From: Mytilus trossulus
Lineage: Eukaryota
Assembly (NCBI RefSeq): GCF_036588685.1
Contig: NC_086376.1
Span: 73,263,630-73,327,629, forward strand
Length of the DNA: 64,000 nt
Reading direction: 5' to 3'
Shown here: one piece after another, positions 2,265-56,213 of the stretch
How positions within the stretch are numbered: position 1 is the stretch's first letter
Layout of the letters: each line of letters starts with the position of its first letter
Translations under genes and position numbers: made by a program
Notes under the pieces: model-generated
The model's database searches: none
What the model saw: the letters and a program-made list of their open reading frames with translations, nothing else
What the model was told of the DNA's origin: nothing

Positions 2265-2480
2265 TAAACTCATCATAGATACCAGGACTATATTTTGTAT
2301 ATATGCCAGACGCGCGTTTCGTCTACAGAAAGACTCATCAGTGACGCTCGAATCTAAAAAAAGTTTAAAAGGTCAAATAAAGTACAAAGTTGAAGAGCAT
2401 TGAGGACCAAAATTCCTAAAATTTTGCCAAATACAGCTAAGGTAATCTGTGCCTGAGGTAGAAAAGCCTTACTATTTAGA
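2265..2480 (-). ncRNA. Retrozyme/PLE-associated repeat with intact type I minimal hammerhead ribozyme core (2304-2347)
   Basis: Minus strand reads GCGTCA-CTGATGA-GTCT(ttctgt)AGAC-GAAA-CGCGCG-TC/TGGC: both catalytic boxes, stem II, palindromic stem III and a cleavage triplet. The flank is homologous to the 43.5-kb array. Confidence 0.8.
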
Positions 2481-16218: not shown

Positions 16219-16814
16219 ATATGTACTAGCTTTCCATTATTGCCAATTGTGACTGTTTTGCTGAATGTGAATTTGCTATGCTCTTAGACGTGTCACGGTA
16301 TTTTTCTGTCCAAAATTTATGTATTTAGTTTTGATGTTATATTTGTTATTCTCATCGGATTTTTTCGTTTGTAGTTGTAAAATAATGTTGTTTTCTGTTC
16401 TTTTAATCACCCAGTTCATTTATAAGATTTTAGTTTGGGTCAACTAAATTTAAACAATGTGTTTTGTTTACAATTTGATTAAGGATAAATCTAATTACTA
16501 CCATTTTATTTATTCATGTATAAGTATTATAATTTTCAATGTTATTAATACATGTTATATCAGTATCACAAACCTTATCTCGAACTCTATCTTTATTTTT
16601 TTGACAAAATTAGACATTTAAATGTGACGTCACTTTTGTACGTTGATCTCTTCAGCTATCATATATTACATTGTTCGGCCGTTTTTTATGTGCTGATTTA
16701 GGTTGTAGTATGCATTCGTTTTTATTCTGAAGATAGTCACCACTTCGGTGTTAACATGTATAACTATTATATAGTAATTTTATTAAAGTTACTGCAAAAG
16801 TATGCACTATTTTA

Positions 16815-17020
16815 AATATTTTCTTATCCCAGGTAGATAACCTTAGCCGTATTTCGCACAACTTTTTGGAACTTTTGCTCCTTATAACTTTTGGTCTTCG
16901 GTGCTCTTTAGCTTTGTACTTTGTATTTTTTTTTATCTTAGCTTCACCGATAAGTCTTGTGTAGACGAAACACACGTCTGGCGTATTAAATTATAAGCCT
17001 GGTACCTTTTGATAGCTATT
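16815..17020 (+). repeat. Retrozyme-family repeat with mutated hammerhead (16941-16984)
   Basis: Reads CCGATAA-GTCT(tgtgt)AGAC-GAAA-CACACG-TC-TGGCGT. The CUGAUGA box is mutated. Confidence 0.7.
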
Positions 17021-18910: not shown

Positions 18911-20781
18911 TCAAAAGGTTGGCTGAGAAAGCATGTTTTGTTCACGTCCAGTTTGTCGGACCTTGCTAGTCGTGACCCATTGTAAAGTTTGTTTCTGAAA
19001 AGAAGCGTGTTCATGAATATCCTCTTCCCCACTATCGTAATGTTCGGCTGTCACGTGCTTCGATCCTGAATTTGTCTTATTTTTCAAAGTTTTCACATTT
19101 GATATGTTCTGGTCTTCAGATGAGTTGTTAGTCTCAGCTGTGTTTAAAGAATGTTTTATTGTCACTATTTGGCCTTCAATGCCAATTGTACTCTGTTTAT
19201 TTTCAGGATGAACTTGAAAAGATTTGTTATCGTCAATGTTAGAACGTTCCCCTGCGATTTGATTCTGCGCACTTTTCTTTGATAGCCTTTTTTTATGTCT
19301 TATTTTCTGTCGATCACCAGGATCACTTGACCACCCTGATTCTGAACTATTTGTTTTAACTTGTCCATCCACCATTTCTGGTGAGCTGAAAGATAATGTG
19401 TCTTCATTCAACCACAATAATCCTAAGGTATCTTGATATCTATTACAATCTTTCGCTTTTTGCAATGCTGTGCTAGTAGATGATTTGCCTGGAATATCGG
19501 CTATGTTATTTAAATCTAATATATCGAAGTGTCCAAATTCATTAAGCCGTCTGCCTATACTGTCTTTTTTAATTTCCTCTGCAGTTTTCTCTCTGAAATA
19601 ATTGTCTCCTCTTGAACCTGAATATTTTGTTACATTTTGGACATCTTTTAATAATTTACTTCCTGTATATCCGGTGGAAAAACGACTCTCGTTATTTTCG
19701 TCCAAATAACTTTCATTTTCGTCAATTTCAGATTTGATATCATTATACACTGATTCAGCAGTTAATCCTAGCCTACTAACTTCGTCAGAAATTGTATGTT
19801 GTTTATTATTTCTAGATTTGGAAGTCTGTGGAAACGAATTTACTCTTGGCCTGAAGGTTAAATTGGTTGTATCTACAATATATTTTTTTTAAGATGAAAT
19901 TACTACAGACCAAATTACCATTTAGCAAAAAATGCATGTAGAGCAAAAACAAAAATAGTATGATAACAGGGTACCAGAAGTTGTATGTTATATTTATTAC
20001 AGATGACTGTGTTCATAGTAGAACACAGTGCAGTCAACCGCACATTTAAATAAATTCACTTACCTTCATTTGATTTGTGTTGAAAAAAAATCAATAGCAA
20101 TCATACACCATATATACAGTTTTATATACACGGGTTAATATCCCTAGTGTGTGTCAAATTAAGATACACACAAGTTGCGCGTAAACAAAAACAAATTCTA
20201 TGTAGTAATCCTGGACATATTTTTATTTTTAACAAGTGACGACTGAGTTTGACCATTTGTTTTGATTTGGAAAATATATGACCACAGACTAAATGTGTAT
20301 AACTATACGTTAATCAATGTATTCAAAGGATTAAAGGATCAAAGAATTATTTGTGTGAAAAAATGAGCATACTGACCAATATAAGTTATATAGACATAAA
20401 AATAAGAATACAAAAATGTTAAAAAGCCCAAATATAGTCATGATAGTACGAAATTGAAAGAGCATTGAGGAGCAAAAATTCCTAAAAGATTTGCCAAATA
20501 CAGCTTTGTAATATATTCCTGAGGTAGAAATGGTGCATTTGTCAAAAATTCAACATCCAGCTAATGAGCAGAAAACAGTCAAAAACATATATAGTGTGTG
20601 TACCTTCGTTTCCGTCGGAAGTTATATCTGCTGTCTTTTCAATTGAAGAGAACAGATCAAAAGATCTAAGATACTTTTTGGAAAATGGCAGGTAATTTGG
20701 TCCGTCTTCCAAAGATGTACGTTGTCCATTAAATATAGGGACTTTACAGCAATGCAAGGCTTCATCCGAAGTTCTGTCCAT
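18911..20781 (-). CDS. Uncharacterised ~379-aa hydrophilic low-complexity (S/N/K/E/D-rich) protein, two coding exons
   Basis: Exon 20604-20788 (ATG at 20781, phase-1 donor GAAG/GT) joins in frame to exon 18911-19872 (acceptor ttgtag), which has 320 open codons to TGA. A possible upstream 47-nt exon lies at 21892-21938. No recognisable domain. Confidence 0.65.
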
Positions 20782-29439: not shown

Positions 29440-29550
29440 AATAAACTCATGATAGATACCAGGACTAACATTTTATATCTTCGCCAGACGCGCGTTTTGT
29501 CTACAAAGACTCATCAGTGACACTCGAATCAAAAAATATTTAAAGGCCAA
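29440..29550 (-). repeat. Retrozyme-family repeat with hammerhead carrying a GAAA>AAAA mutation (29482-29523)
   Basis: Minus strand reads GTGTCA-CTGATGA-GTCT(ttgt)AGAC-AAAA-CGCGCG-TC-TGGCG. Confidence 0.7.
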
Positions 29551-30777
29551 ATTAACGATGCGATTGATAAGCGGTCGATTTTTTTTTATATCATTTAGTA
29601 GCGCAATGTTTTGCAATGACTGTTACAATAATGACAGAATACAACAAAATTAGTATCAAATAAAGTTCATATCAACAGAAACCGATATATACATTGACAT
29701 TACATATCAACCATATTTTCTAATGTAAGTCTTTCTTCAATTACATGTGTTGTTCGAATTGTTCTTAAAATAATTGTTTCGTCAAGGACAACATTGAAAA
29801 TCAAACATTTACCATTGTGGTTAAAACAAAAAAGAATATAGACATATAACACCATGGCAAAAAGACAAACAGAAACGCCTACAGAGACATCTAAAGACTG
29901 AACAACACCCAAAACCAAAAACGAAAACTGAAGCTCTGATACATATTTGTGTTTGAGATACAATGGCTTATCGTGAATTCGTTTAACAAATACCATGAAA
30001 CCGGAAGTTTCAGATGATGACATCCCACTAGTAATCAATCTATCAATCATTATGAGGCAGTGAGTTATAAACTATACCGTGGCCTTTATGTACCAAAACG
30101 AAGAGAACCAACAATAATTTTGCTTAGTACAATGATACACTCCCACTATTAGGCGTTTTTCTCGTGCTCCTTTGCCCCATAACCTCCTTCCCATAATATA
30201 TATGAAAACAAGACAACTATGAAAAAAGTACACCATTTAATATATCCAATCCTGAGGTTGAAATCTTGAGTATCATAATGAAATGTTCTTATTTTCCAAG
30301 TCCTGATACGACTGGTCGTGGCATTGGCTAAAAAAATATGAATGAACATTAGATCAAGTTCAAGAACATATTTTAGTATGCATTATTTCCGTTTATGTGG
30401 TTATACATTTATGAAACAACAATAAATACAGTTAAATACAGTTAAACTGCTAAGTCGTTGAACCTTTTTACCGTTTGACACAACCCTAATACAAACAAAT
30501 AGTTGTACTGAACGTAATTAGCTTCATGTTGACAACAAAATAATAATTTGGGTGACGTTTTAACTCCATGTCAGATTATCCTAAATGTTCCTGGAGTGCA
30601 TATCCCCAAGTTTTGTTTTTAATGACATTACAGTTAATTCATTTTGTTTTATTCATGCAGTCATAATTTCAAATTTTCTTCCAATTGATGTGTACAAAAA
30701 AAAGTACCATTTCGGAAATCTTTAGTACTTTTGTGGATAAATTAATAAAGGTATTTATAATGTGAAAAACTACTCAC

Positions 30778-37773: not shown

Positions 37774-40700
37774 ATGACTCGATTTGTTGCGCTTGTTTTA
37801 TTACCAGCATTTGTATTGGGTTGCTGTCCTCCAAAACAATGGAGAGGTATGGTGTTTGTAGATTATTCCATGCGGGGTGCTGATGGCATGGATCACCGGT
37901 CTGAGGTAAATGATGCTTTCTGCACTAATAAATATTTAAATACTGAACAAAGTACTTATATGCCTAGTTACAATAGCGTATAATTTTTACTATTCTTTTA
38001 CTTCATAAACTGGACAGGAATGGGTTTTACATCATGATTTGGTCACTTTTGAAATGTTTGAATTTAGACAACTGGTCTATCATATTTACTGCGAAAATGG
38101 TCTAATTAAAGGTGCACTAGCTCAAATCATGAATAATAATTTGACTCAAATTCTTATAATTGATTCATATCATATTAAAACGTATACGTGTCCATTTTTA
38201 GAAAGTCTAAAATAAACAACGTAAATGCTCGATAAAATGTATCAACATTTCGTGTGCATTTTAGTGTAGACGCTATCAAATTAACCACCGAGGTGTCGTC
38301 TGCAGACTGCGGATCTCTCACCCGATATAAACATAAATATTGATATTAATATATAGCGAACTCGTGTAATTTGCTATGTCCGTTTGATTTCATATTATTA
38401 ATAAAGGTTAATCAAAGTTTTTGCCAGTTTAAGAACTAGTTTGTGTGGATTGAATCAGTCATTCATATGGCTTACTCTTGTTTTCACTTTTAATATTGAC
38501 GTTCTTTTCCTTTTAAGGGCATACGATACAGTTACAGGGAAAGTAATGACGTTGCTAACGTAACTTGTTATTTTCGCGACGTCAAACTGTGACATATCGG
38601 GCAAAGATGCATTTTTCGACTGATTTTCATCGTTCAAACTGATTTAATTTGAAAACGAGTTCATGGACCCCTATTTTTCAAAACGTCATTTTGTTTCATT
38701 TTGCAGGGAGATTATGTGACCCAAATTTTATAAAACTGTAAATAGAGGATTTTTTTTAATTTTGATAAACATGCAGTAAAAAATGACGTTTTTCCTCAAT
38801 TCATGAACATTTGATAAATATGAGTTATTTCTGAATAAAAAATTGCATATTTTTTTAAGATATTTATAAAATACAGAAATTACCGATTACTTAACAAAAA
38901 ACAATTTGTGTTTATCTTTTATAACAAAAAAGTTATGTCTTTCTTTTGAAAAAGAAATTACGGCCACAAATCTGAATTTTGAGCAAATATACAAAATTTC
39001 GACCTCATTTTACTCAAAAAGTAGCACATGAAGGTATATCTTTTATTACATATTTGATTTAATCAGGTAAAAACTAGCCTATATGCAAATTTTCAGGAAC
39101 TTGTAAATACAGGATCAAAACTGTATCGTATGCCCTTAATAACTGAACACGCGTACTAAATTATAATCCTGGTACCTTTGATAACTATTAATTCATTCGT
39201 AACCCATCTCCGTCTAAGGGGTTGAATTGAGGTTCACATGAACATGGATTAAGTGAGGTCGAATTATTTACTTGCAAGTGAATAATCATCAGCCAAGTTT
39301 TTTTCGCTTATTTTTACAAAATGCAACCATACTGGCTTCAAAAATCGAATTAATATTTCATCAATAATTTTACAAAATTAAAAAAAATATATCGCGTAGA
39401 TAACGCTCCTTTTAGAAAACTTAATTACAGGAAAAACGATGCTACATCCCAATTTCATATCATACCACTGTTCATTTTATGTGTATATTACAGTTTGCAA
39501 AAAAGTCCAAATGTATATTCTGTCACTAAGTATGAGTCTTATTTTGAAAGATTTCAGAAGGTCTGATTTACGATCAAACAGTTAGGAAGTTGTTTGCAAA
39601 CCAAACAATAAACGTTGACGGGGGACCTGAATTTCACCAGACAGCTTTACTAGACTTTAATACGGTAAGTACTGAAATGAATTTTTATTCATAAAATGTC
39701 AACACATGATAACAAATTAAATATTAGTACATGTATGTAGCTCTTTTAACTTCAAATTAAAAAGTGCGATTTCCTTGTAACATACCATCCTTAGTGTATA
39801 TAAAAAAAAGAAAAAAAATTACAAAAATACTGATGTGCGAAGAAAATTCAAAACGGAAGGTCCCGAATCAAATAGCAAAATCATACAATAAATCACATCA
39901 AACGAATTGACAACAACTGTCTTATTGCTGACTTGGTACATGCATTTTCAAATGCAGAAAATACTGGGTTAAATTGGTTTTATAGCGCTAAACCTCTTAC
40001 TTGTATGACAGTCGCGTCGAATTCCAATTATATTTACAACGATGAGTGATCAGAAGAGACATAATTTGTAAAACTATGGATACCGCAGTCATTACTATGT
40101 CACAATCTCAAGACAAAAATACAGTTTTAATTTATTTAAAGCGTATTACAAGCTTACATACAAAAACCCTACCTATCAAAACATTTTTTAGAAAGACATT
40201 ACAATACATAATACATAATACATAATATAAGACATATCACTGTCATGTGAAGTTATATTATTATGTTCTTTAATTTTTTAACATTATAGACAGAATATAC
40301 TTTTAATGGCGAAATTCTGATCATTAATAGCTTTTCTCCTTTGATGAAGCGTTACAATTGTGTTGTCCTTTGGGAAACTGATCTATCTTTTTAATTGTGC
40401 AGGATATAGAATACTTAGTCCGGGATAACAAGTGTACGAAGATGAATATTACAACCATGGAACCAGGGTGTATACCAAGTAAGTTCCGAAGGATGATAAT
40501 CATAGATGCTCTTATACTATCCAAGCATAAACAAAACAAAATCAATATAGTGATATCTCCATATACCTATATGCACTCAGTATAAAATATTAAAAAAAAA
40601 TACAAAGAACGAATAGGAATTATGTGAACACACTTAACATGAAGTTTTGACAGTGCAGAAGTTTGATTTAATGTTCTCTCTTGGTCAATAACGCTCCAGC

Positions 40701-42493
40701 AAGTTCGGGTTATTATTAAAATTAGGTCGTTAATAGCTCTGCATGAGACTCTTCAGAAGCATTTGATTAAAATATAATTAGTTATAGTCAAAGGTACCAG
40801 GATTATAATTTAGTAGCCAGACGCGCGTTTCGTTTACATAAAACTCATCAGTGACGCTCAAATCAACATAATAAGCTTTAGATCATACATATAAAATATA
40901 CTGAAATTAAAAGTGTAAATAAGACTACATTCTTATGGTATCTTTCTTTTAGTGAGTTATTTGCATCACACAAAAAAAAAAAAAAAAAAAAAAAACAAGC
41001 TGTCGGCTCCCTTTGAGCAAAGTTCACATTTGGAAAAAATTTGATATTATGTTAAGGTCATCTTTAAGTTGCAGCGCGTTTACATATTCCTGGTTTTCAA
41101 ATGTGTTGGCTGTTCTTAACTGATGAGAATAAATTTAGAAAAGCGCTTCAGAGGCAAACAATGTATAATTTTCATTTAAAGGGAATGAGTTATATGTGAT
41201 TGTAGTATAATATTTCTTTTATGCGCATAAAATATCATATTTTGAACTAAACATTGGAGTTGAGAATTTTAAAAACGCTTGAAGCAGTTAATCATCTTCA
41301 TTCCAGATAATGCAACTGTAATAAATCATTCGTACATGGGTGCTGGAGCAGCTAAGGTTAAAACAACAATGTATAGATTTCAATATGAACAAATGTTGGT
41401 TTACCTGACTGTCGCAGATGATGGCTGTGTTCCAATACTTTACGAGGGTGCAGGAATGAACCAAAAAGGAGGTATTAACATCCTGTTAAGAGTCACATAT
41501 ATTTATTTTATATAATGAAACAACTACACATCATACTACATAGTCCAAACTATTTAAATATAAAAACACATGTATGTATACGAATAATGGCATTGACATA
41601 AAGAAATTGAAATATTTATTTACCTCAAAATGCTGCATAATCCTAATTTTTTTTTTATAGAATCTGTTAAAATGGGTATACAGTATATGGGAATTGAAGC
41701 AGTTGCGTCTGATCCATCAGTATTTAGTTTACCAGCCAGTTGTGTAAGTATATTTAGTCGGACTTTTGTTATTAATATTTTTCGTTAAATTATTCTAAAT
41801 TAAAGAATATATTTCTATAATGCAAAGCACGGATTCCTTCCCCGGCATTGGCTTCATTATTATTTTTCCTTTTTGAATTATAGCCCTTTATATTTATATA
41901 AAGATTTGACTTTTCCGATATGTTGACCTAGAGCAGGACAAAAAGATACCCTTATTGTCGAAATATGCATCTGGTGCAGTGAATATATTAGGCAAAAGTA
42001 GTTTACCTGTGCTCAAATCTCGCAAATCGATTAAGGAGGTAAGAGGCATATTCAGAGGGGTGTATAGGATGGCCACCCTTTTCTGTGAAAAAATGGTTGA
42101 TTATATTGGGAATAACTTAAGCATGACCGGAGCGGTCCCCTCTTAAGCAGTCAGTGGGCCACCACATATGAAAATTTCTGGATCCGCCACTGAGAAGAGA
42201 CAAATCTTGGTTCCATAAAATCACTTTATTTTAAAATAACGGTATAATCGATACCAGAAACTAAATCCTCAAAAAAGGGTAAACACTATCATGACTATGT
42301 AGAATTGCTGGCAGTTACTGAGGTAACATGTAATTATAGAATATGTTCTAGATTGATCTTTTTCATTAAATACAACTTTTCTTTTTTTTAATATGCGATC
42401 CATACTTGTTTTTTTTTTAAATACAACAAACTCATTGTAACAATGATGATGATAATAATTTTGCCTTTTATTTCATTGTAGAGTATGCTGTGA
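37774..42493 (+). CDS. Ependymin-related protein B (193 aa)
   Basis: Exons 37774-37905, 39551-39664, 40403-40478, 41307-41471, 41661-41743 and 42482-42493 (SML*). Signal peptide, CCPPKQWRG, EPGCIP, DDGCVP and DPSVFSLPASC are present. TATA-like element at ~37732 and AATAAA at 42545. Confidence 0.92.
38517..39135. mobile_element. Intact TTAA-flanked non-autonomous DNA transposon (Kolobok-like) in EPDR-B intron 1
   Basis: Perfect 17-bp TIR GGGCATACGATACAGTT / AACTGTATCGTATGCCC, with TTAA on both sides. Confidence 0.85.
40815..40857 (-). ncRNA. Type I minimal hammerhead ribozyme motif (antisense, in EPDR-B intron 3)
   Basis: GCGTCA-CTGATGA-GTTT(tatgt)AAAC-GAAA-CGCGCG-TC-TGGC, with an intact core. 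Confidence 0.8.
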
Positions 42494-43099
42494 TGTGTTA
42501 AGTGTAGTGATTGCTGAGTGATTAATACGGGTATACCTTTTTCGAATAAAATTAACAAATATGTGTACAGTTATGATTTTGCATTTTTACCATCATATAT
42601 AGATATATTCACAGCGATTAGATACCCTTATGAATAAATTGGAGACTTAGACAAACACAAATCTTTATCTTTTTGTCAACTACTTCTTTGAGGAGTTCAG
42701 TTATATTGCACATATGTGTTGACACGAATTATTATGTCCCTATCATTGAAATGGTAATAATTTTCTATTTCCATTATATTTACATACTTAGGATTTTCTA
42801 CAAAACGAATACATAACATTACCTGTATATCGACAAAAACTTTTGGAAATTTGGGTCCTAAATGCTCTTCGTTTTCGTACTTTATATTAGGACTTTTAAA
42901 CTTTTTTTTTAAATTAAAGAATTTTTTTTTACATCCTTTTAATCATATTATCTATGATTTGGTTATGTGTACGGTCAGTCAAAACAGAATTGCAGTTTTG
43001 TTTTCGTTTTTGCTGCAAAGCAGTGATTTTTCTATCGTATATAAGTTTTCAAAATTAAAAGCAAAAAAGCAAAAAGCAAAAAGCAAAACTGATTAAAAA

Positions 43100-43480
43100 T
43101 CATCCTTCGAGGGATACGATAGCACATATCTGGTGATATGCTTATTCGGTAAGTCACATTCTGGGACAAAGGGAATGGAAGTGTTGTAACGATAGTCGGA
43201 ACATATCCTTCGTCATTTATGAAATAGATATTCAATAACGGTCAACCAACTCGTACTGACGCCGTTAAATTTGCAAAGGGATGATTTTAACTTCACCAAT
43301 AGGAACTTTTGGTTTATTTGCTTGCTCAAAGAAATCATGATAGGAAATACAAGCACTTGAATATCATATCAACTGGGAGTAATATTCTCCAAATAGAGGG
43401 AATGCTGGAAAGTTGCTAAAACGAAATTGATAATTCACAATTGGGAAGCTGAAATTATCGCTTTGCTAATTTACACTTAC
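43100..43480 (-). mobile_element. PLE-like RT 3' fragment
   Basis: Minus strand encodes DFSFPIVN..SNFPAFPLFGEYYSQLI.YSSACISYHDF-like motifs, collinear with the other PLE relics. Confidence 0.6.
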
Positions 43481-43539
43481 CATTCTTATAAAATAAATCA
43501 GGAGTAGTTGTTTAGGGTTTCAGAAGAACAAACCTTTAA

Positions 43540-44102
43540 TAAGAACTAAGGTTTCAACTCCCTCAGGCAAAGTTGGCTTTAGATGAATTTGGCTATTTAT
43601 TTTAGGTATTTTTTGACATAAAGCTCTTCAACGGTTTCGGTACTTATACATCGTCGGATTTCAAATGTTTTGCTTTGAGCGTTCCCGATGAAGGTAAATC
43701 CAGAAAAGCGCTTCGGACGCAAGAAATTAATAACGTGTTGTTTTCAATATTTTACACCACTGGGTCGATACCTCTGCTGGTGGACTATCAGTCCCCGAGG
43801 GTATCATCAGCTCGTAGTCAGTATTTCGGTACTGACATGATTTAACAAACTTTACTAAAATTGTCCGTTTATAAATTTATAAATTATTAAGAAACTAAGG
43901 TTTCAACTCCCTCAGGCAAAGTTGGCTTTATATGAATTTGGCTATTTATTTTAGGTATTTTTTGACATACAGCTCTTCTACGGCTCGGTACTTATACATC
44001 TTCGGATTTCAAATGTTTGGCTTTGAGCGTTCCTGATGAAGGTAAATCCAGAAAAGCGCTTCGGACGCAAGAAATTAATAACGTGTTGTTTTCAATATTT
44101 TA
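43540..44102 (+). ncRNA. Retrozyme-like tandem array: 348-nt monomer (about 1.6 copies) delimited by two hammerhead motifs
   Basis: Near-identical direct repeat with period 348. Each copy has GCGTTC-C(T/C)GATGA-AGG(taaat)CCA-GAAA-AGCGCT-TC/GGACGC. Predicted cleavage after 43714 and 44062. Confidence 0.8.
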
Positions 44103-47100
44103 ATCTTATCTTGTGATGTTGATCAGTATTACTGTGTTTCTCTATCTGTCATGTTTTTCAAGTGAGTCAATTGGTAAACTTTTTAATTAATAAATTTTGC
44201 TTTATGTCGTAGCTGTCAGATAATGTTTGTATAAATATAGAGTGTATGTAGATTTTGAATATTTTGTCTCTTGGATTGTCTTTATGTTTAATGGTTTTCA
44301 CAATATTAGATAATCGTCTTTAATATAGGACACTTATTTACAACACTTTCGAACAAAACCAACTGTCAAAAAAACAATTAAAAGATATTTGAAATAGATA
44401 AACTAATTACTCTTAGTTTACTACATGTATATATGAAAATTGTTTTTTATTCTTCTTGAGCATCATCCGCAGTTTTAAATAGGATCTGCGGTCCTCAGTT
44501 TATCGTTTTATATACAGTGTCTTTTTGACTGGTGTTTTTACTTTCGTCGCTGCTTAGTTTACTACCGTATGTAGTCGGTTTATCTTTATTAATTAGTTTT
44601 GGTATCCTCTTTTGTCCCCACACCTTATCAATATAATGGTTTTTGTGCGACTGTCATACAAGTTAGAGATTTAGCTAGCTATAAATAAAGACAACAATAG
44701 TATAACGATGTTTAAAAGTCATAAATCGTTTGAGGGAAAACAAATCTGGGTTACAAACCAAAACCACGAGAAACACATCTACTAAAACCTGGTTTAATCC
44801 ACAATTTCTTCATAGGGAAATGCCTGTACCAAGTACTAAGATAGTTGTTTTACATTCGTTTGATATTATAGAGATTTTGATTTTGATTTTGCCGTTTGAT
44901 AATAGCCTTTCCGATTTGAATTTTTCTTGGAGTTCATTTTGTAAAACAAATATTTTTTCGGGGGGGGGGTCGTTCGCCTCTTTTAAAGATTTTTAAAATA
45001 CTTTTTATGACGAGTCTTCAGTCAAACTAACCCAAATATTTTGTCAAATTTTCTTATGAATGTATAATTCCTAAATTTCATATATTAAGGACACATAAAA
45101 AGTTTGTACTAAGGGCTAATTTATTAGATTGGGCATACATTTTGAATATCTGTGTTACGATTAACGGTTATGTGGAGTTTAAATGTTTAACCCCATGTCA
45201 AATAATTCTTCGAGGCTGTAAATTAATCTGCCTGCTAAGATAAGTAAATACAACAAAAATCACAACTCTACTAATAAACAAGCCAATGACAAAAAAGAAG
45301 GTTGTAGAAAATTTTTGTATTCATGTACGAACAGGGGGTGAAAGGTACCAGAGGAACAGTACAACTCATAGATCGATAACAAACCGACAACACCATGGCT
45401 AAAAAATAAAAAGACAAACAGACAAACAATAGTACACAAAACACAACATAGTAAAGCAAAGACCGAGCAAAACGAGCCCCACCAAAAACAGGGGCGATCC
45501 CATGCGCTCCGGATTGGTAATCAGATCATGCTCCATATGTGGCATTCGTCATGTTATTACAAACCAAGTAAATTTGATGTTGTCAATTTATTTTCGATTA
45601 AAAAATTTAAATGTTCCTCTGGTGTCTTTTCTTTTCTTTTCTTTTACACAATCTGCAGACACCATTGCACGTTGTAATTAGGACAGGATCTGTATACCGG
45701 TACATGTTATGGTAAAAGAAAAAGTAGAAAGTAATTTTTTTTTTTATTAAATTATGATACTAAGATCAATTCGTTTAAAGAAAGTTAACAGATGTCCATT
45801 CAATAAAAATGTCACATATTTATATCGTTCAAATTTGATTATGATAAGACACTGCGTCATATAAAGGCAACATATAGAATGAAGTAAATATAAGCAGCAT
45901 TTGTCGAAATTTGACGTCAGAATGTAAACGTCACACAGGTAGATATATAAAATAATGTTGTCATTCAGAGTATTTTCAAAATTATAATAGAACAATAGGA
46001 TATATATAAAGTACAGAGTCACGTCATATGTACAAAAGCGCATTTTGACTTCATAAAAACTCATATGTGACGATCGATTTCAAAACGTTAACAAGTATAA
46101 GTTATGTACTAAATATAAAAAAAAGAAGATGTGTTATGATTGCCAATGAGACATCTCTCCACAAGAAACCAAAATGACACAGAAATTAACAAGAATAGGT
46201 CACCGTACGGCTTTTAACAATGAGCAAAGCCCATACGGCATAGTCCGCTATAATTTGATTAGCATGGAAGACCCAACATTCCGAACGGTTTTGCCAGTTA
46301 CATATAATATAATCTATTTCTTGTGAATAGAATCATAAGCACATACATTTTGTGAACAATTATAATTATGACCATATCAATGATTTTTTTTTAAGTAAAC
46401 ACGTCAGAAATTCATTAATAAATGTCTATTTGAATTTACTTCCTGCAAGATTTGACTTCTAAACTTTGGGTGGTTTACAGTAACTTATAGACATAACAGC
46501 GAGTAAGCTTGTATTGCTGAAGATTAATTAATGTATTGATATGAAATACACCAAAACAAGTAAGTGAATCCGGCTTATTTTCTACCTCTAATTGGCATTA
46601 TCACTGAACAAGTAGATACATTTATTTAGGGGCCAGATGAAGGACGCCTCCGGGTGCGGGAATTTCTCGCTGCATTGAAGACCTATTGGTGATCTTCCGC
46701 TGTTGTATTTTATATTGTCGGGTTGTTTTCTCTTTGACACATTCCTTATTTCCATTCTCAATTTTATTACAAAGCATTCAAATACCTTTCTTAGAAGAAG
46801 ATTGATAATTCTTCAATTTACATGTCTCCATATTCACTTATTGTATGTTCTTGATACTTATCAAACATACTATTTGTTCTTACAGTTTTCTATTTTTCTA
46901 AGAGAACATAATGAAGATTGAGAAAACATGATCTCGAGGGTACTTGTTTTCTGCCTTTTAATAACATAAATAATTGTTATGTTATATTAATAAATATAAA
47001 GATCCATAACAGTATCACACGATTTTTTATACAAAGATAGACAACTCTAATATTCATTGAGTTTTAAAAAAATCCTTCATATGTTTTATGAAAATTAATG

Positions 47101-48863: not shown

Positions 48864-49071
48864 ACACTTGTTTGAAATTCTCAATGAAGACGAAACGTGC
48901 GCCTGGCGTATCAAATTTTAAGCTTGGTACCATATAATCTTATTGTTTTTCTAATCCAAAAAAAAAAAATAACCTTTCATAAATATTATTGATGCAAAGT
49001 TATTCTGGGAAAAATAACATTATTTGATATTTAAGACTTCCCATCGACAGTACGAATTGCATCTGTTTGTA

Positions 49072-51968
49072 TCACTTCCGTCTTTTTATTGCTAAGTCAA
49101 GAAGGAGGTTCGTCATCATATCCAATGCTTTAATATAGGGATGCTCCATGTACTCGTCACGGACTTCATAGCTGTCAGGGAATGCGACGGTTGGACGGCA
49201 ATAAACGAATGCACAGTTTTCAGTAGCGAACCAAGTTTTCAGTCTATGTAATATTTTCAGTGCCCAAATGTGAATATAACCAGTTCTATTTCTTAATGAA
49301 CACGCTAGATTGTACCTCATTAGTCGTAATGCTATTTCGTGACTTGGTGTATAGCAGCTATGAGATACCATTTGGTCATTAAGAAGACCATACGACAGAT
49401 GTGGGTCGAGTTCAAAGAACAAAGCATTCTTCAACATATATGATGTAATAATTTCGGGACTGCAAAATGATCCTGAATCACAGAAACTCCGCAAAGACTT
49501 TATCAATTTATATGCATCTTTTACTTCTGTCATTAGCCGCATTAGTATACATCTCTCTACATTTAGGAACGACAGACGAGCAAATTCGCTCTTTCGGCAA
49601 ATTACATGCCATTGATATTCCCTATGGCTAATAAAGTTTGTAACCGGAGAGGGAATCAAGTTTTGGATTACTTCAGGTATGTGTTGTTTAACAATTACAG
49701 GTACTAAATCAATATTTATGTTCAGATCTCGTGCTTCCAGTCCTATCCATTTTAATCGTAGGGGTGCAGTGAGAGAGCTCTCCACGACAAGATTTGTTTG
49801 TACCCATTCTACAGATTTTGCAATTGGAAGAACATTCCAATAAAACGGTGAATCTTTCCAAAAATCATTCGAATTGAGTACTGTATAAATGTAGGAATTA
49901 AATTTTTCGTAGATATTCCAGCTTAATGATTCCCCACTATGTACAATGTCTGTATCATTGTCTCTTTTCACGGTGATATCTTTACGAATATCTTTTATTG
50001 TCACTTCATTTGCTTGCTCAAAGGTATCGAAATAAAACCAAGGACTTAAATGTTTTAAATGAAACTGAAAGTCAAATTCATCAAGTGGTAGAATTTTTGT
50101 TTCCTCACTTATACTTCCTGCTAATTCTATCTCCGATTGAAAAATTTTATCGATTTCAGTCAAGTGCTCTGATATCTTATTAACCAATTTCTTGACATCT
50201 TCAAATATAGTGCGTTCAATGTTACTCATGATTAATGGTCCACAGTTATGATCATGCAGTAAAAGATCTACTAGATTTGCACCTTTTAAATCTTCTCTCT
50301 TGACATCTGTTGATTCCCAATACACAGATTCTTTCTCATATAATATGGTACTTCCATTTGCCCTGCATGTCTTGCAACACGAATATGGCAGCCCATTTTC
50401 TTGTAGTGGTTCTTTATTATATGCACATTTAAAATGCTGGTCCATCAATACTGCATTTGTTGATTCCCAATACACAGATTCTCTCTCATATAATATGGTA
50501 CTTCCATTTGCCCTGCATGTCTTGCAACACGAATATGGCAGCTCATTTTCTTGTAGTGGTTCTTTATTATATGCACATTTAAAATGCTGGTCCATCAATA
50601 CTGCATTCGTTAATATGTTAGAGGAGTCATAATCCCGAAGTGGTTTCCCTCGGTTATCGACAACATTCATATCAAATCCAAAAACATCCATGTAATTCAA
50701 TGCTGCAGTGTTGTTTTCAAATAAAGATAAGTGTTGGACACGTCTTCCGTAATTGTCTTGTTCATCTAAATCCTTCTTATCTATGATTTCAGATAGCAAT
50801 TTTAATGCAGACAATTCCTCTTCCTCATTTTTTATCTTGTAATTTCTCGAAGGATGTAAAACAGAATAATGTAAACAAGTCCTTCCAAATGTATCTCTGA
50901 CAGATGGTTGACCTCCTATAGTCAAAAGAAACTTCAACAAACGTGTAAATCTAAACCAACTAGCATAATGTAATATTGTACGACCATGTAAATCGGTTTG
51001 GTTACGGTCAAGTCCATATTTGGATAAAATTTCAACCTTTGTTATGATATCTGTTTGCATTTTTTCTTTGTCCAATCAGAAAGGCCTCGAACCAACAATC
51101 CGTGTATCGGAGGCAGTGGTAATGCACAGCATTTTGTTGATAACTTAATCTTAGGAGAACATCTTTCCATAAACATCTTGAGTTCTTCAGGTGTCAAAAG
51201 TAACAATAATTTATGAAAAGCTGTCACGATTCCTTGTGGTTCTGATATATTAATGTCCGCATTATGTTTTACTAACAACAGCACTATATCGAGACTCGTA
51301 TTACTTCCCTGTAAACAATGAGAGTATAACAAAGGTGTAAAGTCATCATCATCTCTACAATTTGCATCTGCTCCGAAAGACAAAAACAGAGATAGTAGAG
51401 GAAGATTAGCTGTTTCCATGGCCCAAAGCAATGGTCGATGTTCACTGTCACCGTTTGGGTTGGTATGATACGTTTGTATAAGTTCCCGAGCAAATTCTAT
51501 GATATCGGTTTGTGAAATATTGCCAACTTCATCACTTCCTCGAAGTCGACAAAGTTTACACAGAAAATGATTTCTGTAAGTGTTTACTTTCTGGCTAGTC
51601 TCATTTTTTGTCATTTCTAACCAACTTCTTATCTTATTGAGTTGATTGTATTGTCGGGGAAAACCTACTGTAAAGCATTTATTGTTTTGTTCTTGATCTG
51701 CATAAGGAATAATTTTTTGCAGAGGACTTTTATAACAATTTTCGTACAAATTAATTTCAGATGCATATGGTAAAAGTAAGCTCCATATTTCATCTACAAC
51801 TTTTTGATCAGCAGCCATATGCAGGATAGTTTTAAAGCCTCTTATCCTTGTATTTACTAGTTTTTCTTTAGTATTGTCTTGTAATGATAGAAGTTTTTCT
51901 TTGCATCCCTCAGTATCATTTTGAGTAACTAATGAGGCGAACGTCTGTAGGTCTGTCTTTGTCGACAT
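49072..51968 (-). CDS. Ankyrin-repeat / cGAS-like receptor (Mab-21 nucleotidyltransferase, cGLR), about 965 aa, split by one frameshift near 51060
   Basis: Ankyrin motifs: KTILHMAA, RPLLWAM..GADAN..DDDFTPL, ADIN, GRTILHYA, GRTCLHYS, GRRVQHLS, DNRGKP. NTase motif AGSISEETKILPLDEFDF, third acid in INIDLVP, and Mab-21 C-lobe motifs RLSFLNVER, YKLIK and SYMLKNALF. A splice acceptor at 51999-52000 implies a 5'-UTR intron. Confidence 0.88.
50308..50607 (-). repeat. In-frame 150-bp tandem duplication (2 x 50 aa) inside the cGLR CDS
   Basis: NAVLMDQHFKCAYNKEPLQEN(E/G)LPYSCCKTCRANGSTILYE(R/K)ESVYWEST occurs twice. Confidence 0.95.
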
Positions 51969-52659
51969 AGTTCTAGGTCAGAGAAGGAAGGTTAAAACCT
52001 AAAAGAACGCAAATGATTAAATTTAGTGTTAATCATAAATTGTTATCGTCGTTTTTTCTTTAGCAACTATTTTTTTACGTGTTTCAACGAAAGTTGCATT
52101 TGCAAATCAGCATTTCCCAACATTAACAATTTTTTAAAAGAACAGAATGATATATATTTGTATATGATGAAAAGGTTAAGTTATTATACAATTTATTTCA
52201 TTCATTTCTCTCTATCCAGCTTGAAGAAAATTTACCTGTAATCATAAATCTTTATTCTGTTTGTAATTATTACATTTAGGTGCATTTCCTATCTGTCCAT
52301 CACATTAATGAAAATGAATAATGTATGTAGATTGATTAGCATTTCAAGTGTAGCTGAATATTGCCACTATTAATAATGTGAGAATAATTTAATTTTAATA
52401 TATAAAGAAAACAAATTTACCATATAAACATGATAAACTTCGTATTGTATTGTCGTTAATACATCCGGTTCACATTCTTATAACAAGTATAATATTTCCG
52501 GTATTGTGTATCTAGCACAATACATAACAAATGACTAAATACATTAGGCTGAGGATATTATATTTGTATAGACGTGTATGTGTAAATTCATTTTGCACAT
52601 GTATATTTGAAATATCTTCAATATGTTGCAGTATGACATATCTACTTACAGTTGTTTCA

Positions 52660-54916: not shown

Positions 54917-56213
54917 GATTAGAGATTGTGTATTGAAAATAAACTCATCACAGATACATGGGTTGTAATTTTAACACATAATTGCTGACAACTGGGCTGG
55001 TGGCACCCTCGGATAATAAGATTCAGAATTTAGATAACAGATAGTTGGTGGCATATGATTTCTTAAAGAATCAAGTGTTGGGCATGCTACTGCAATTTGT
55101 AGTCATCCGTTCTACTCTACTACTGTTTGTGAATAAAAAAAAAATATCATGTTAGTTTCTTTGTGTGGAGGTGACTTTCTAAAGAAATATCTTTTGCCAT
55201 CTCAATTCATATCAATGTTTCGAAATAAAATGCAAGTTTCAGTTGTTTGTACAATGAAAGTTGGTATACAGGTAAATATCCTGTAAACACAGCAATTATA
55301 TTCAAACACTTTACAGAAGGGGTCATGGCCTTTTATGTATTTGCAAGTTTATCACCTTGAACATTTATAATTGAAATTCCAAGAATTATTTCGTTCTGTT
55401 TGCAAATTCCGAAGAAGTAGAAGGTATCAGACCACCAATTAACCTCTCCAATTTAGAACGTTTGTAAAAGTAGGCCTACTATGACACAAATGATATGCGT
55501 TTGATGTCATTAGATATAGGAACATGTGGTGTGAGTGCCAATGAGACAACTCTCCATCCAAATAACAATTTTAAAAAAGTAAACCATTATAGGTCAATGT
55601 ACGGCCTTCAACACGGAGCCTTGGCTCACACTGAACAACAAGCTATAAAGGGCCCCAAAATTACTAGTGTAAAACCATTCAAACGGGAAAACCAACGGTC
55701 CAATATATATATAAAAAAACGAGAAACGAGAAACACGTATATATTACATAAAAAAACGACATTGTTTACTTAAACTAACCAACAAATTTTGCAGAAATTA
55801 AGTTTTTAATGAAAGAGAAATATATTTAGCCCATTTTGAGTCAAAATCCACGTGTCTGAGTTAAGAATTAATGAGCTCTATAGTATATTAATTGAAGATA
55901 ACCAGACGTTCTGCATGTAAAAAGGTGATACATGCATTATAATTCAGGGTATACCTGGTTTCTATGAAGTTAAACTTAAGGTAAAATATTAAGAATGTTG
56001 TGAAAATTGCAAAATGTGGTTGAACAGATAGGGATTTTTAATTGGTGGTCTGACACATAGAAAAAAAGTAAAATCTGAGATAATTGTTCAAGGTGAAAAT
56101 CCGCACTGGTGCATGCTTTATCATGTTAATCAGTAGAAATTGATAGGGAAATGTTTACAATTACACTATTTATAAATCTTAAAGTTAACGAGACTGTGTT
56201 CAAAGAATCCGTA

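Follow-up and report, generated by a model that had tools for sequence, protein, structure and literature searches.

A minor hammerhead retrozyme family of Mytilus trossulus that likely spreads through a borrowed Naiad enzyme

Results

An insertion of 1.62 retrozyme-like units

The window analysed here is a 64,000-nt stretch of the Mytilus trossulus genome (contig NC_086376.1, positions 73,263,630 to 73,327,629). At 43541-44098 it holds an insertion of 1.62 head-to-tail units with a period of 348/349, the parts of which are given in Table 1. The initial annotation had described a non-coding direct repeat of period 348, and this proved correct: two blocks recur at spacings of 349 and 348 with 97% identity each, and the longest stop-to-stop frame within the repeat is 79 aa. 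The copies, then called near-identical, are about 96-97% alike (7 substitutions and 1 indel over about 212 nt), and the insertion is recent in a relative sense only, with 4 substitutions per copy from the family majority against 0.5-1 per unit in the youngest arrays. GC content in 43001-44000 is 0.35. No LTR, PBS or PPT was seen in the repeat by eye, and a search for an empty paralogous site of the insertion found none.

Upstream on the same strand lies an ependymin-like gene, EPDR (37800-42500, +), with predicted exons at 37800-37900, 39550-39664, 40400-40480, 41300-41473 and 41661-41743 and a short last one; its match to the ependymin profile PF00811 is weak (E 0.052, below cut-off). The repeat had been placed about 1 kb downstream of this gene, in agreement with a predicted last exon (from about 42482) roughly 0.9-1 kb upstream of it.

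Table 1. Coordinates of the insertion and its parts in the window
Feature	Position	Strand	Remarks
Target-site duplication TTTAAT, left copy, 6 bp	43535..43540	+	Sequence and duplication test
Partial unit, 5'-truncated	43541..43714	+	Starts at about monomer position 175
Upstream type I hammerhead motif	43679..43720	+	Private U4C at 43686; predicted cleavage after 43714
Full 348-nt unit between cleavage sites	43715..44062	+	Predicted monomer
Naiad-type element	43753..43815	+	Bulged stem-loop at 43759-43815; predicted RT binding/initiation signal
UUCG-capped hairpin	43817..43836	+	Present in both retrozyme families compared, not in Naiad
Downstream type I hammerhead motif	44027..44068	+	Core intact; predicted cleavage after 44062
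3' tail beyond the last cleavage site	44063..44098	+	Extends to the fixed 3' end of family A
Target-site duplication TTTAAT, right copy	44099..44104	+	Overlaps the T-rich element end

Each copy contains a hammerhead motif, with cores at 43685 (CCGATGA) and 44033 (CTGATGA). Stem I (GCGTTC/GGACGC), the palindrome AAGCGCTT and both predicted cleavage sites are as first annotated, and so is the U-to-C change in the upstream core. Stem II, recognized from the start as atypical, consists of GG/CC (2 bp) closing a loop of 5 nt and is flanked by an unpaired A on either side; in the downstream motif these extra A residues are 44040 and 44050, and stem III is a helix of 2 bp with a palindromic GCGC loop. 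An Rfam scan of 42000-46000 gave no match at E<=1.

A dispersed family with an unusual core

We searched the genome (1.3 Gb in 14 large contigs) with a 30-nt core of the family to which the window copy belongs, here called family A, and found 794 exact copies, against 0 for the reversed control. Tandem hammerhead-bearing arrays of this family lie on all 14 large contigs, with units of 348-350 nt and 1.1-18.2 units per array. Two sister families have canonical hammerheads: family B, with 11,823 exact cores and a period of 354-355, relative to which family A is 15 times rarer, and family D, with 5,209 cores (counted with the loop sequence left free) and a period of 349-352. Whole units of A and B align with 67-69% identity, rising to about 84% at positions 37-126, and 2/8 pairs of the UUCG hairpin are changed on both sides between them. 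A search for loop variants of the A core gave 142 matches; the 30 inspected are older copies or fragments, none of them next to a long ORF. One divergent relative of the unit (69%), L136 (1624-2111), has a deletion in the stem-loop and a different stem II and possibly represents an older family.

The membership features found in family A are short, low-GC, dispersed head-to-tail repeats, a type I hammerhead in each unit and target duplications of >4 bp. The term retrozyme-like, first applied to the single locus, is borne out at the level of the family by its tandem hammerhead arrays, its homology to the M. galloprovincialis lineage and the sense bias of family reads. Comparison of 119 units showed 5.7 differences within arrays and 9.6 between them, and in 17 of the 19 multi-unit arrays some variant is present throughout the array, both of which fit one template per array. 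Higher-order repeats in arrays L032, L024 and L056, consisting of exactly repeated 4-unit and 3-unit blocks, are likely the result of local duplication. We rejected a multimer donor for L032, the private variant of which is seen in no other place.

The core is intact (CUGAUGA) in 150/161 units of young family-A arrays. Exact-core genome counts gave 8 copies of the U4C form against 794 intact ones, so U4C is a rare private change that arose as damage after insertion. The extra A before G12 is fixed in family A, no copy being without it; we found no tested precedent for a hammerhead with this extra A in the literature searched, and supplementary files may bear on the point. Between A and B, 87.5% of the cells in stems I and III are paired and 3/8 pairs have both sides changed. 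In this comparison of 6 distinct rows from two lineages, the covariation score was matched by 3/500 shuffles and the count of double-change pairs alone by 98/500 (not significant). Conservation figures for the 3' strand of stem I were set aside, since the choice of loci biases them. Despite the low identity of A and B (67-69%), none of the 11 invariant core bases has changed, for which simple arithmetic gives a chance of about 0.02.

Folding of the 348-nt unit did not favour the self-cleaving form that the initial annotation had expected. In context, pairing of the stem III palindrome with the 5' strand of stem I is predicted to put the active fold at a disadvantage of 9-11 kcal/mol to the free fold, and stem I itself has a predicted probability of about 0.01. 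Compared with shuffles, the family-A monomer showed no better folding (z -0.28), and circular forms of it gave -0.15 and -0.36, against -2.9 for family B; the highly self-paired monomer described for retrozymes, which is not diagnostic, was thus not found in family A. An intermolecular stem III would have 8 bp and is predicted to be worth about -10 kcal/mol, which makes dimeric or protein-aided cleavage of family-A RNA plausible.

Two further hammerhead-like sequences were set aside. On the minus strand a string near 43657 is the complement of a stretch able to pair with the core; it is not kept in B and does not form the main predicted fold, and therefore we claim neither an antisense ribozyme nor a conserved lock. 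A solo motif at 41120, within a decayed remnant of family A that occupies 41081-41168 (+) inside an EPDR intron, has AA/UU replacing GG/CC in stem II, a form unique in the genome that was not taken as evidence of covariation.

A fixed 3' end and scattered 5' ends

To compare insertion ends we used the window copy and 39 comparison loci, which are top matches among the 150 listed (best 40 of 2985 candidates scored) and therefore favour young copies that contain a complete unit. The 3' end falls at monomer position 36-43 in 39/40 of these insertions, with 22 at position 40, and at position 50 in the remaining one. The 5' ends of the 40 insertions are spread uniformly over monomer positions 4-345 (KS p=0.52). 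Target duplications of at least 6 bp, mostly with TT at the start, flank 13/40 insertions, against 100/1560 mismatched controls. In families B and D, terminal copies judged by eye also end directly before the conserved segment. The tail of the window insertion is ~36-40 nt long, and its end (44098) would mark the start of reverse transcription. One internal start, with copying that passes the cleavage site, means that the template would have been a circle or an uncut multimer; a linear cut monomer is excluded because copying would stop after 40 nt.

A stem-loop shared with Naiads

The bulged stem-loop of the window copy is common to other retrozyme families and to the 5' end of Naiad, a Penelope-like element (PLE). 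A GIY-YIG search returned 149 matches from the best 150 of 615 candidates scored, many of them with long ORFs. When the segment common to A and B was made into a profile, it matched Naiad 5' ends with 19-21.7 bits, the best reversed control reaching 4.5 bits over 859 kb, and the window copy is identical to Naiad at 49/67 aligned bases when an internal hairpin found in Naiad only is left aside. The strict motif is present in 15/16 Naiad loci that hold the ORF start and in 0/7 truncated Naiad loci and 0/25 other GIY-YIG loci; some of these 48 loci overlap one insertion, and among the 25 others the ORF start is contained only in the longer stretches, which represent three families.

When retrozymes and Naiads were folded separately, most formed the same outer helices, but not the window copy, where a base of the outer helix is missing. 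In an alignment of 11 sequences, 97.8% of the cells of 21 pairs are paired, and three outer-helix pairs have compensatory changes on both sides. The covariation score was reached by 0/500 shuffles and the number of double-change pairs alone by 60/500 (not significant), counts that, like those for the hammerhead stems, come from few independent lineages.

The position of the element relative to the 3' end is also shared. Naiad 3' ends in L183-L190 lie within a T-run immediately before the same element in 8/8 cases. In these Naiads and in L135 the stem-loop is confined to the tandem junction, directly past the 3' end; the downstream end of a solo Naiad is without it, and full-length copying would therefore require tandem or circular RNA. 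Intact Naiad ORFs are present in the same genome, among them one of 1011 aa. A partner ORF, P0001, has an N-terminal GIY-YIG domain (PF01541 at 138-228) and CxC, DKA and RT motifs read in its translation, and these marks, as given in PMC8557442, assign the group to Naiad; Pfam RVT_1 gave no match to this ORF at E<=0.01.

The same arrays and the same fixed 3' end are formed by ribozyme-free mini-Naiads that consist almost entirely of the stem-loop element. L246 (C12, 1229-2157) has about 7 near-identical units of 131 nt and L247 (C10) about 2.4 units of 140 nt, each unit made up of the stem-loop, the first ORF codons and a T-rich end, joined via short microhomology. The stem-loop element thus seems nearly sufficient for array formation, and the hammerhead is not required for it.

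Outside the element we found little in common between the two groups. Family A and Naiad share one weak similarity (E 0.007), Naiads L183 and L135 have no canonical hammerhead, and a search for a PLE that shares the family-A tail gave 129 matches, with no PLE end among the 30 inspected. A 27-nt match between the tail of family B and the Naiad 3' UTR was rejected as a shared tail, since a short piece of retrozyme has inserted there into one of three UTR sub-repeats, some 410 nt away from the end of the Naiad. L113, L114 and L118 (551-578) contain such a 28-nt, 5'-truncated family-B insertion, which a Naiad subfamily carries along in one sub-repeat of its 3' UTR. In the window itself a decayed piece of a Naiad 3' end was recognized by eye at about 44780-44950 (+).

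RNA reads

Four RNA runs labelled as the same species, three of them stranded, came from individuals other than that of the genome. The repeat is covered by reads, 80-90% of which run on unlike it and are mostly sister-family reads that align via the shared segment. Outside the shared segment, family reads are about 2-4 times sense-biased in the three stranded runs. The retrozyme family is transcribed; nothing in the RNA points to the window locus as the source. Read depth is steady across 43714, with no pile-up of ends at the cleavage sites, and in short reads circles and uncut multimers look alike. Many reads in X21 and X22 start at a CA step at 43917-43918 (monomer position 203-204), which marks either a genuine end or a site prone to fragmentation.

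Discussion

Our results suggest that the window copy represents an inserted stretch of 1.6 units from a minor family of non-LTR retrozymes, which probably spreads by means of a borrowed Naiad enzyme recruited through a Naiad-type stem-loop. Retrozymes and Naiads have the stem-loop beside the same stopping point, and therefore the Naiad reverse transcriptase likely binds and copies retrozyme RNA. Transcription of an array would yield multimeric RNA, which the hammerhead would cleave slowly or with assistance (dimeric or protein-aided), and a host ligase would join the units into ~349-nt circles. The Naiad reverse transcriptase, predicted to be recruited by the stem-loop, would then act at T-rich DNA nicked by the Naiad GIY-YIG domain, in target-primed copying that may begin a few bases upstream of the stem-loop, run backwards round circular or multimeric RNA and stop at random. 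A purified PLE protein, PAc, has been reported to need a region near the ORF start and to begin reverse transcription internally, hammerhead or not (PMC11167929), and internal initiation in retrozymes and Naiads would agree with this biochemistry. More tentatively, and on balance with less confidence than doubt, we suggest that family A could be an undescribed third mussel family with an active core variant, and that all mussel retrozymes could be ribozyme-made circles with a captured Naiad stem-loop, copied in rolling-circle fashion by a ribozyme-free, telomerase-like retrotransposon.

Family A may instead be a non-autonomous Naiad passenger, copied from uncut multimers or otherwise-made circles, with a vestigial hammerhead that no longer cuts; we regard this as unlikely. 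It draws on the identical array anatomy of the ribozyme-free mini-Naiads, on the predicted misfolding and lower abundance of family A, on RNA-read ends, which do not pile up at the cleavage sites, and on published work in which PAc insertion in vitro was unimpaired by hammerhead mutants (PMC11167929) and 8/9 Xenopus retrozyme dimers stayed uncleaved in vitro (10.64898/2026.07.22.740005). However, a vestigial hammerhead is at odds with the retention of every invariant core base and with the compensatory changes in stems I and III, and the youngest arrays are clonal but unlike the rest, in keeping with a circular template of one unit.

There is a slim chance that the stem-loop was inherited from a Naiad-like ancestor and that another, hammerhead-bearing PLE with a C-terminal GIY-YIG now mobilises the family. 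Three further PLE families with long ORFs exist in the genome, Xenopus retrozymes are reported to be related to pLTRs of other PLE clades (10.64898/2026.07.22.740005), and GIY-YIG scoring covered the best 150 of 615 candidates, which leaves room for other element-bearing PLE families. Yet neither the element nor the unit was matched in the examined loci of those three families, and both its pairing and its distance to the 3' end are kept, as expected for a signal in use.

The initial annotation had proposed that the locus itself releases a 348-nt circle, expressed by read-through from EPDR and cut by both hammerheads, which now appears hardly probable. The gene is on the same strand at a short distance, both motifs are present, and the U4C variant of a viroid, although considerably less active in vitro, retained enough activity for infectivity (PMC3088659). 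Release from this copy is nevertheless disfavoured by the rare private U4C, by the predicted misfolding and by the lack of flanking reads. Several AATAAA signals lie between EPDR and the repeat, and window alleles are rare in the reads, with 43686 being T in 41/47, 51/53 and 89/91 of them (X21-X23). The flanks (43470-43537 and 44116-44300) received 0 reads in 4/4 runs and the EPDR exons had no coverage either, so that these runs, from other individuals, count only weakly against read-through. The locus is an ordinary, partly decayed copy and likely a passenger that seldom or never yields a circle.

Satellite DNA amplified by unequal crossover only has almost no chance of being the explanation, for although the exact higher-order blocks of L032 and L024 speak for it, it gives no account of dispersal, a single fixed 3' end, random 5' ends or target duplications; unequal crossover is contradicted as the sole mechanism and remains as a secondary process.

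Retrozymes in mussels are already known, and the present findings add the mini-Naiad arrays and, for family A, the link to Naiad and the fixed, odd core. In M. galloprovincialis, two families of similar sequence have been described, in which the repeats are 350-390 bp long, cleavage is slow (about 0.1 per min) and circles are abundant (PMC7229834); they resemble family A in their low-GC tandem units of about 350 bp with a type I hammerhead each and a palindromic stem III. The 375-nt Rtz of that species (PMC4918200, Additional file 11) shares, by eye, the stem-loop segment and has a homologous body. The initial annotation had noted that non-LTR retrozymes are reported from mussels; family A is homologous to that lineage but not of its hammerhead type. 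The published hammerhead, by eye, is of the B type, with a 3-bp stem II closed by G10.1-C11.1 directly before GAAA, whereas stem II of family A has 2 bp and an additional A on either side, and the pairs of stems I and III are different. The two published Mytilus families are likelier to be B and D than A, which may or may not be among them.

Naiads, as described in PMC8557442, resemble retrozymes in their fixed 3' end, 5' truncation and partial tandems, to which we add a shared 5' stem-loop lying equally far from the 3' end; unlike family A they are autonomous 4.3-kb elements with an ORF, and their stem-loop has an extra internal hairpin. Likened by description, the PAc Poseidon element of Anolis carolinensis (PMC11167929) has an internal RT start downstream of the hammerhead site, near the protein-binding region, and AT-rich targets, but it is autonomous and of another clade. 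The minimal PLE hammerheads of PMC4209133, of low activity and dimer type, share with family A an extra nucleotide between A9 and G10.1 and a palindromic stem III; they differ in a stem II of 6-8 bp, and an extra base before G12 is not described in the part of that source available.

A PLE origin of retrozymes has been argued for vertebrates on the likeness of their sequence to PLE ends (10.64898/2026.07.22.740005); the available part of that study includes no mollusc, has Naiad in coral only and describes neither an RNA signal nor a fixed end. According to a 2020 review, animal retrozyme repeats are without a conserved motif that would indicate an autonomous helper (PMC7761336). We found no Naiad-retrozyme link in the literature searched, on which the supplements of PMC7229834, PMC8557442 and the 2026 preprint may bear. 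The shared stem-loop beside the shared fixed end names a candidate helper for animal retrozymes, a stated open question. It is also the first candidate recognition signal for Naiads, which can be tested with a 60-nt RNA and an intact ORF, and the mini-Naiads L246 and L247 offer minimal substrates for the Naiad RT. The family-A core probes how far a hammerhead tolerates insertions beside stem II. Were mussel retrozymes indeed circles with a captured Naiad signal, the missing helper would be named, a portable PLE reverse-transcription signal of ~60 nt would be defined, and hammerheads would be shown to be parasites of PLEs.

The window also contains fragments like family B or its sister families at 2272-2477 (-), 16734-17020 (+), 20445-20521 (-), 29482-29551 (-), 39151-39189 (+), 40775-40870 (-), 42786-42882 (+), 48884-48931 (+) and 54973-55012 (-). 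At 49072-51977 (-) there are two long frames, of 667 and 311 aa, with ankyrin repeats.
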